Virus record (IMG/VR): IMGVR_UViG_3300034965_000044
Span: 1 to 63,503 of that record
Reading direction: 5' to 3' (one strand)
Length of the DNA stretch: 63,503 bases
DNA from: a virus
Taxonomy: Duplodnaviria > Caudoviricetes
A program made the translations under genes and the position numbers. Shown piece after piece: positions 11,125 to 11,268 of the stretch. The notes under the pieces are model-generated. The model was not told where the DNA came from, ran no database searches, and saw only the letters and a list, made by a program, of their open reading frames with translations. Positions within the stretch are counted from its first letter, which is position 1. Each line of letters begins with the position of its first letter.

Positions 11125-11186
11125 GGGTATCACCTCCATAGGACGGAAATAGCTCCGCCTCACAGGGCATCCACATTCACCAACGA

Positions 11187-11198
11187 TGTCAAAGAGCA
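11187..11198 (-). promoter_or_regulatory. boxA-like antitermination element
   Basis: TGCTCTTTGACA versus rrn boxA TGCTCTTTAACA, about 35 nt downstream of the predicted TSS and after a hairpin. Confidence 0.75.
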
Positions 11199-11239
11199 GT
11201 CTCAGGCTATTCAGTCATTCAATCTCGATCGTAGCCTAT

Positions 11240-11268
11240 AGTATAACACAGTAAAATAGCAGTGTCAA
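11240..11268 (-). promoter_or_regulatory. Strong sigma70 promoter of the early operon
   Basis: TTGACA-17 nt-TATACT. Confidence 0.85.

Follow-up and report, generated by a model that had tools for sequence, protein, structure and literature searches.

The window, a 63,503-base stretch of DNA that makes up a whole IMG/VR virus record (completeness estimate 96%), carries on its minus strand an early operon of small genes, the first of which starts at 11124. Divergent from it, at 11315-11827, lies a gene for an Sf6-type small-terminase-like protein (PF20901), not for a repressor. Pfam and PHROGs also identify a T7-type portal (PF12236), tail tubular proteins, internal virion proteins and the large terminase. 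The phage is a podovirus whose portal and tail genes are of T7 type, and it also has NinB, RusA-like and replication-initiator genes in lambdoid style. Among 77 distinct open reading frames (72 scanned against Pfam, 73 against PHROGs), none matched a known RNA polymerase, N or Q family. The window contains no tRNA genes, and Rfam gave nothing at gathering scores; at E up to 1 there was only a sub-threshold match to an RpsF leader, on the other strand (E 0.4). A host in the Pseudomonadota is only hinted at, the sole hint being an outer-membrane beta-barrel gene (2522-3151, plus strand; OMP_b-brl / Porin_2-like) whose look-alikes occur in that phylum and which is probably a host-derived moron.

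Gene 1 matches no known family in Pfam or PHROGs; its product has a lysine-rich tail and an N-terminus that is not arginine-rich. It is the first of six consecutive genes, encoding 61-148 amino acids behind strong ribosome-binding sites, each of which is enclosed by a predicted long-range RNA helix (S1 to S6). The features of the leader and operon are listed here, with conservation given for the window and the two relatives, G001 and L004, described below.

11263-11268, minus: -35 hexamer TTGACA, invariant in the window, G001 and L004
11240-11248, minus: extended -10 TGtTATACT (TG 11248-11247, hexamer 11245-11240), 17-nt spacer
11232-11234, minus: predicted transcription start, placed by position rule only, 6-8 nt after the -10
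11204-11237, minus: inverted repeat AGGCTA (11237-11232) / TAGCCT (11209-11204), 6 bp, 22-nt loop, doubtful as an RNA hairpin
11187-11198, minus: boxA TGCTCTTTGACA, nucleotides 1-8 as in E. coli rrnB boxA, invariant in all three sequences
11183-11186, minus: TCGT extension, with boxA a 16-nt invariant block
11151-11176, minus: S1 5' arm ATGTGGATGCCCTGTGAGGCGGAGCT, starting 10 nt after boxA
11142-11159, minus: local hairpin GGCGGAG/UUCCGUC in the MFE and centroid folds, competing with inner S1, just upstream of the Shine-Dalgarno sequence
11137-11133, minus: Shine-Dalgarno GGAGG ahead of gene 1
11124 (ATG) to 10717 (stop), minus: gene 1, 135 aa, G001 homologue 40% identical
10660-10685, minus: S1 3' arm, a short way behind the gene 1 stop codon
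10660-10639/10407-10386, minus: S2, bracketing one gene
10353-10326/10061-10034, minus: S3, bracketing one gene
9964-9940/9463-9439, minus: S4, bracketing one gene
9438-9411/8918-8891, minus: S5, bracketing one gene
8888-8854/8597-8563, minus: S6, bracketing one gene
11124-10717, 10619-10434, 10303-10094, 9918-9499, 9392-8946 and 8824-8609, minus: genes 1-6, each helix-enclosed
7676-7716, minus: GC-rich hairpin after gene 8, then UCUUUAACU; -24.7 kcal/mol, z -3.9, a weak terminator-like site with a weak U tract
6290-6325, minus: strong intrinsic-terminator-like hairpin after gene 11, then UUUGGUUUAUUUAU; -26.6 kcal/mol, z -4.8

The hairpin at 6290-6325 has a 16-bp stem and a U-rich tail and sits within a run of genes on the same strand, with a 140-nt gap to the next gene (6149-5781).

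Promoter and start of the leader

The minus-strand TTGACA-17-TATACT that an earlier, sequence-only reading of this DNA had picked out is indeed there. This early promoter scores 11/12 with an extended -10 element and is the top site between 5000 and 13000 in a promoter scan. It lies 42 nt upstream of boxA and is conserved in the relatives, with TGnTATACT and the 17-nt spacer in all three sequences. Across the whole window two sites reach at least 11/12, where 200 dinucleotide shuffles lead one to expect 0.19. The other, at 56511-56546 on the minus strand (TTGACA-17-TATAGT, scan position 56546), has a -10 that ends 7 nt before the ATG of a 299-aa gene (55612-56511), the mRNA of which may, to judge by this spacing, be leaderless; no boxA stands behind this second promoter.

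The same reading had placed a hairpin, AGGCTA...TAGCCT, between promoter and boxA. The letters are present, and we considered the repeat as a boxB analogue or an operator. It is rejected as either, given the overlap with the start site, loops of 22 and 10 nt in the two sequences that have one, and its absence from G001; in particular, it is not counted as a boxB analogue because its 5' arm overlaps the predicted start and because G001 has no counterpart. The folding energy depends on the start chosen, with -7.8 kcal/mol if the RNA begins at 11238 and 0 kcal/mol from 11232; a start at the usual distance from the -10, at 11234-11232, would leave the 5' arm out of the transcript. In L004 there is a 5-bp analogue at the same position relative to the -10, with a 10-nt loop where the window has 22 nt. 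The repeat is probably not an RNA element, and the leader as a whole folds no better than its shuffles (z +0.54).

A boxA element conserved in diverged relatives

The element TGCTCTTTGACA at 11198-11187 differs by a single base, at nucleotide 9, from the E. coli rrnB boxA TGCTCTTTAACA (taken from NC_000913), as had been claimed from the sequence, and its first eight nucleotides, UGCUCUUU (11198-11191), are identical to the E. coli core. In the crystal structure of NusB-NusE-BoxA, the recognition described does not extend past nucleotide 8, and the Aquifex BoxA used there has G at nucleotide 9 (PMC3177189). The pattern GCTCTTTRACA occurs once in the 63.5-kb window, with 0.04 occurrences expected and the pattern present in 4 of 100 shuffles, and there is no second copy between the helices.

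Two relatives have a readable leader. L004 is a 1,138-nt metagenome contig with a terminase-like protein 41% identical to that of the window; G001 is a 64,295-nt IMG/VR genome in which the terminase-like protein is 31% and gene 1 40% identical. Both keep the layout of the window, and in the window and G001 boxA stands between the small-terminase-like gene and gene 1. In G001, GCTCTTTRACA is again found a single time genome-wide, at the same spot. In the three-way alignment of leaders the invariant stretches include TTGACA, TGnTATACT and GGAGGT, and the longest of all is TGCTCTTTGACATCGT, boxA plus TCGT, which runs for 16 columns (78-93) despite flanking proteins only 31-41% identical. The distance from the end of boxA to the start codon is 57-65 nt in the three sequences. 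A further, 151-nt contig from a public sequencing run (listed twice, as X1 and X2) derives from a closer relative; it overlaps 11106-11171 and continues into a close variant of the leader that retains GCTCTTTGA but has AAA instead of ACA. Conservation of the motif in relatives had been set as a check on the sequence-only reading, and boxA is kept in all the relatives found.

Other searches added little. Homologous proteins, P0002-P0008, occur in public run assemblies. Blastn of the leader region against cultured phages gave no match, nor did scans of viral contigs with the terminase-like protein or gene 1 alone. The alignment A1 matched nothing among viral contigs and gave two weak matches among genome contigs (Streptomyces and Microgenomates), which we set aside as spurious, and the search with alignment A2 returned G001 again only.

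Long-range helices around the first six early genes

Ten nucleotides, TCGTTGGTGA, separate boxA from the 5' arm of helix S1. The reported run of GTGAATGTGGATGC into the 5' arm of a first stem is borne out: the arm at 11176-11151 pairs with 10685-10660, which emerges 467 nt later. S1 spans 26 nt, in which one position is a G/G mismatch and two are G.U pairs; it scores 23, whereas the best of 200 shuffles reaches 15. We tested helices by ungapped helix scores against shuffles; whole-segment duplex energies against shuffles were uninformative. All six helices stand out by this measure (scores 19-28 against shuffle maxima of 15-17), with 22-35 bp, 0-3 mismatches and spans of 225-500 nt, and from gene 7 onward there are no gene-bracketing helices. 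Along 8563-11176 on the minus strand, each helix ends with its 3' arm next to the 5' arm of the following one.

Two features of the helices speak for selection on pairing. The six helices together hold 144 Watson-Crick pairs, 13 G.U pairs, no A.C pairs and 7 others; 13 G.U against 0 A.C is an asymmetry expected only if pairing has been selected in the minus-strand RNA. Further, the arms of S1 differ in sequence between the window and G001 while remaining complementary, that is, they covary. In G001, four helices follow in series, with scores of 19-22 against maxima of 15-17 and with 12 G.U and 3 A.C pairs, and there 15-17 nt lie between boxA and the 5' strand of the first helix. Hairpins analogous to the local one at 11142-11159 are visible in both relatives.

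At 22-35 bp, the predicted helices are long enough to be candidate substrates of RNase III, an enzyme that calls for some 20 bp or more of RNA duplex with few interruptions. S2, S4, S5 and the second helix of G001 contain a shared GCCUYCAAGGGCA core whose mismatch always falls at one position; in S2, S4 and S5 its two strands read GCCUUCAAGGGCA / UGCCCUUG(U/C)(G/A)GGC. Such a core may be a sequence-specific processing signal. Separately, genes 4 and 5 are paralogous, with 71% identity over 188 nt (9206-9393 and 9735-9922) and matches of both to phrog_30739; the helices flanking them are likewise paralogous, which suggests that a whole helix-gene-helix cassette was duplicated.

Comparison with leaders of bacterial rRNA operons

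A comparison with rrn leaders had been asked for in the sequence-only reading. We took leaders from PLSDB replicons, using 12 of 676 16S-matching records that were picked by organism name. In seven of the nine alphaproteobacterial leaders a boxA site with at most two mismatches lies 190-290 nt before the 16S gene and has G at nucleotide 9 (TTTGA); Ensifer and Azospirillum, the remaining two, have no boxA match within 900 nt. Rhodobacter carries the exact 12-mer of the phage, and Sphingobium and Methylobacterium share the 11-mer. Nucleotide 9 is A in two betaproteobacterial leaders, one gammaproteobacterial leader and E. coli, and TTTGA occurs in none of these four; Ralstonia, Burkholderia and Pseudoalteromonas carry GTTCTTTAACA or GTTCTTTAAAA. 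In Rhodobacter and Methylobacterium the strand that pairs with the 16S trailer starts 9-10 nt after boxA, and the phage spacing is 10 nt. The comparison comes out in favour of a likeness, with G at nucleotide 9 in seven of nine alphaproteobacterial leaders, an exact match in Rhodobacter and a similar spacing, and the phage reproduces the alphaproteobacterial boxA form as well as the interval between it and the 5' strand of a long-range helix.

The mimicry of an rrn leader that had been proposed stands in part. In bacterial rRNA genes the short boxA signal lets RNA polymerase continue through to the end, by way of an antitermination complex of NusA/B/E/G, SuhB and S4. The E. coli rrnB leader (NC_000913) has the order P2 promoter, boxB hairpin, TGCTCTTTAACAA and then TGTGTGGG. 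Of such an arrangement the phage has the promoter, boxA and the 5' strand of a helix after 10 nt; the boxB hairpin falls away, and for boxC there is a loose GUG-rich stretch only. The likeness covers a strong promoter, a boxA with the same 8-nt core and, about 10 nt on, the 5' strand of a long-range helix, and the successive bracketing helices recall those of 16S and 23S rRNA. Unlike rrn operons, however, the phage encloses protein genes with strong ribosome-binding sites rather than rRNA, has a single boxA and no credible boxB, and has helices that span 225-500 nt, compared with 1.5-2.9 kb in rrn. In Enterobacteriaceae, boxA and boxC are 18-19 nt apart in the description given by PMC10250234, where a tether model is set out; the E. 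coli mutagenesis described there indicates that the spacing matters only partly and supports the model in part. boxA is said to be sufficient for complex formation on rrn, boxB not being required (PMC13753749).

Promoter-boxA leaders in other viral contigs

We searched IMG/VR with the pattern TTGACA-N16-18-TANNNT-N15-45-GCTCTTTGACA and found 118 loci (124 matches, 100 unique leaders), whereas controls with the pattern fully reversed and with the promoter followed by a reversed boxA gave 11 each. None of the viral leaders has 16S similarity within 1.5 kb. At least 30 of the 100 unique leaders have same-strand tRNA genes downstream; the true number may be higher, as the flanks of 38 loci extended for only 300 nt. 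The five letters that follow the motif (+1 to +5), which the search pattern did not cover, favour ATTTA (54-67% each), as found in E. coli rrnB, and in many of the leaders a small hairpin immediately precedes boxA. This sequence evidence suggests that phage genomes commonly carry rrn-type boxA leaders, often in front of tRNA arrays; we found no description of them in the open literature.

A helix behind boxA is not a general property of these leaders. Helices starting within 60 nt after boxA exceed shuffles in 4 of the 60 unique leaders whose flanks were long enough, one of the four being G001, and the mean helix score after boxA is 12.6, against 12.2 for an upstream control. In the unrelated viral leaders L042, L090, L025 and L094/L027, boxA is followed after 0-36 nt by a long-range helix, perfect or nearly so, whose closing arm lies 210-550 nt downstream. 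Leaders ahead of tRNA arrays, among them L026, L028, L045, L046, L049, L051, L055, L063, L064, L068 and L070 and others, often have a hairpin directly before boxA and ATTTAGA behind it, and, to judge by these leaders, the transcription of phage tRNA arrays appears to follow the rrn style.

Possible function of the phage boxA

We consider it somewhat more probable than its negation, at roughly 0.55, that the phage boxA recruits host Nus factors (NusB-S10) and so gives rrn-like, processive transcription of the early operon. Host RNA polymerase would initiate at the near-consensus, sigma-70-type promoter and make the rrn-type boxA after some 35 nt of transcript (some 15 nt in the relatives). There boxA would bind host NusB-S10, which together with NusG, NusA and SuhB would turn polymerase into an rrn-like, processive and termination-resistant complex. 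Such a complex could read through a structured operon of about 5 kb, with its six 22-35-bp helices, the GC-rich hairpin at 7716-7676 and possibly the terminator at 6325-6290. A tethered boxA would further hold the 5' strand of S1 close to the point of RNA exit until the pairing strand appears 467 nt later; we infer that tethering may occur because 10 nt separate boxA from this strand, the spacing of alphaproteobacterial rrn leaders. The bracketing helices could then be cut by RNase III.

In favour of Nus recruitment are the uniqueness of the motif, the identity of its core, the alphaproteobacterial type of nucleotide 9, the spacing, the conservation, the covarying first helix with its excess of G.U over A.C, the enrichment of boxA behind promoters and the lack of matches to phage RNA polymerase, N or Q families. 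Against it count the small set of relatives (two with a readable leader and one short contig), the partial effect of boxA-boxC spacing in E. coli, the known repression of the suhB type, Ensifer and Azospirillum without a match, the unremarkable fold of the leader and the finding that a helix after boxA is not general (4/60). Nor is a need for protection from Rho obvious, because the early genes have strong ribosome-binding sites.

Other explanations would leave the conserved element a different role. In lambdoid phages boxA acts with N, the gene for which lies just downstream of nutL (PMC2800207), and gene 1, directly behind boxA, conserved at 40% identity, outside known families and with a lysine-rich tail, or another small early protein, could be an unrecognised antiterminator without which boxA would not work. 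We think this unlikely, as boxA is followed by the arm of a helix with a 467-nt span instead of a boxB-type hairpin, gene 1 lacks an arginine-rich N-terminus, and the element has the full rrn form that is said to suffice for forming the rrn complex (PMC13753749). Less likely again is a negative role: NusB-S10 bound near the ribosome-binding site could lower translation of gene 1 and promote Rho termination, as at suhB, or the leader could titrate Nus factors. Repression of suhB by boxA is documented even from more than 50 nt upstream of the start (PMC5725501), and in the phage group boxA ends 57-65 nt ahead of the start codon; the geometry, though, copies rrn and not suhB, and a self-limiting first early gene behind a near-consensus promoter seems counter-productive.

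The 16-mer is, of course, invariant as DNA too, and could be an operator for a phage or host protein or, as the TTGACA within it is a perfect -35 hexamer, part of a second promoter. We rejected this TTGACA as a -35 element since no -10-like hexamer lies 16-18 nt downstream (TGCCCT in the window, GCCTCT in L004, TCCCTT in G001). A DNA site of either kind is improbable, given that the 16-mer is not palindromic, that the run contig has AAA for ACA yet keeps GCTCTTTGA, and that it would explain neither the match to rrn boxA nor the 10-fold excess of the motif behind promoters. Chance resemblance without function was already disfavoured and is very improbable: a 12-mer can arise by chance, and the 11-mer turns up somewhere in 4 of 100 shuffles of the window, but here the motif is the longest invariant block, stands at one and the same site in three diverged genomes, and is a single copy in each complete genome (window and G001).

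If the boxA functions through Nus recruitment, the phage takes over the transcription complex of host rRNA without a lambda-type N protein and couples it to an unusual message architecture in which each early gene of the series has its own long-range helix. It would also provide a small and mutable natural system for testing the proposed RNA-chaperone (tether) role of the rrn complex, with helices of only 225-500 nt. Tentatively, and with more doubt than belief, this can be extended to the clade: its early mRNAs would be rRNA-like precursors, in which host polymerase takes on its rrn-type Nus modification at boxA, tethering of boxA assists the closing of the first in a series of leader-trailer helices with one reading frame inside each, and RNase III frees single-gene mRNAs with paired 5' and 3' ends, while N-independent use of rrn boxA would be common among phages (118 IMG/VR leaders, 30 of the 100 unique ones before tRNA arrays).

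Relation to T7, lambda and chromosomal boxA leaders

The idea of a phage boxA leader is not wholly new, because the early leader of T7 carries a boxA-like sequence. In the T7 record it is CGCTCTTTAACAA, at 812-824, which places it 62 nt downstream of the A3 start and some 100 nt ahead of gene 0.3; two T7 records have no boxA feature in their annotation, and we found no open paper on its function. T7 is like the window phage in being a podovirus, in having a host-type promoter (A1-A3) and then a boxA-like sequence before the first early gene, and in having an early operon punctuated by double-stranded RNA elements. The RNase III sites between the early genes of T7 are local hairpins, whereas in the window the helix arms flank each gene over a long range. 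Further, T7 encodes its own RNA polymerase in the early operon and its boxA has the gamma-type A at nucleotide 9. Of a T7-type early operon the window has the promoter and boxA; its helices are long-range instead of local, and its 77 scanned reading frames gave no match to an RNA polymerase family.

With nutL and nutR of lambda the window phage would share a boxA in an early leader that recruits host Nus factors, which for the window phage is our proposal. The boxA of lambda is a shorter form, unlike the full rrn form in the window, and of the two marks of a lambda-type nut site, a boxB hairpin 3' of boxA and an N-family protein, the window shows neither, the latter among its 77 scanned reading frames. 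Single boxA elements behind a promoter are also described for suhB and CRISPR array leaders, where Nus factors act on Rho-dependent termination (PMC5725501, PMC13753749), and boxA can repress, as at suhB (PMC5725501, PMC12360218). Those leaders differ from that of the phage in being chromosomal and without bracketing helices, and the effect at suhB is repression.

Control that depends on boxA is already known from rrn, lambdoid nut sites, suhB and CRISPR arrays, and the motif is present in T7. What appears to be new is a conserved, alphaproteobacterial-type boxA that heads the early operon of a non-lambdoid phage, in rrn geometry and before a series of gene-bracketing helices. In the open literature, with few subscription journals, we came across neither rrn-type boxA in phages outside the lambdoid group nor helices that bracket genes; older work may exist.

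Other repeated elements and genes in the window

A 20-nt element (minus strand TGTTAGCTCATTTNCGAGCA) occurs three times, at 8107-8126, 6165-6184 and 5180-5199, each copy just 5' of a ribosome-binding site and past the helix-bracketed part of the operon. The ribosome-binding block ATGGAGGTGAAACCA is found at 5714-5728, 7510-7524 and 11125-11139, and a perfect copy at 7641-7655 (minus strand) has no start codon and may be a decayed gene start. Outside the operon, the reading frame at 3908-4684 contains five degenerate 39-nt tandem repeats (4418-4603, plus strand) that are rich in CAG and GGC and encode a Gln/Gly-rich stretch, and a 2,043-aa protein of the virion module (34778-40909, plus strand) includes a ddrB-like ParB-superfamily domain (PF18763) at residues 868-982.
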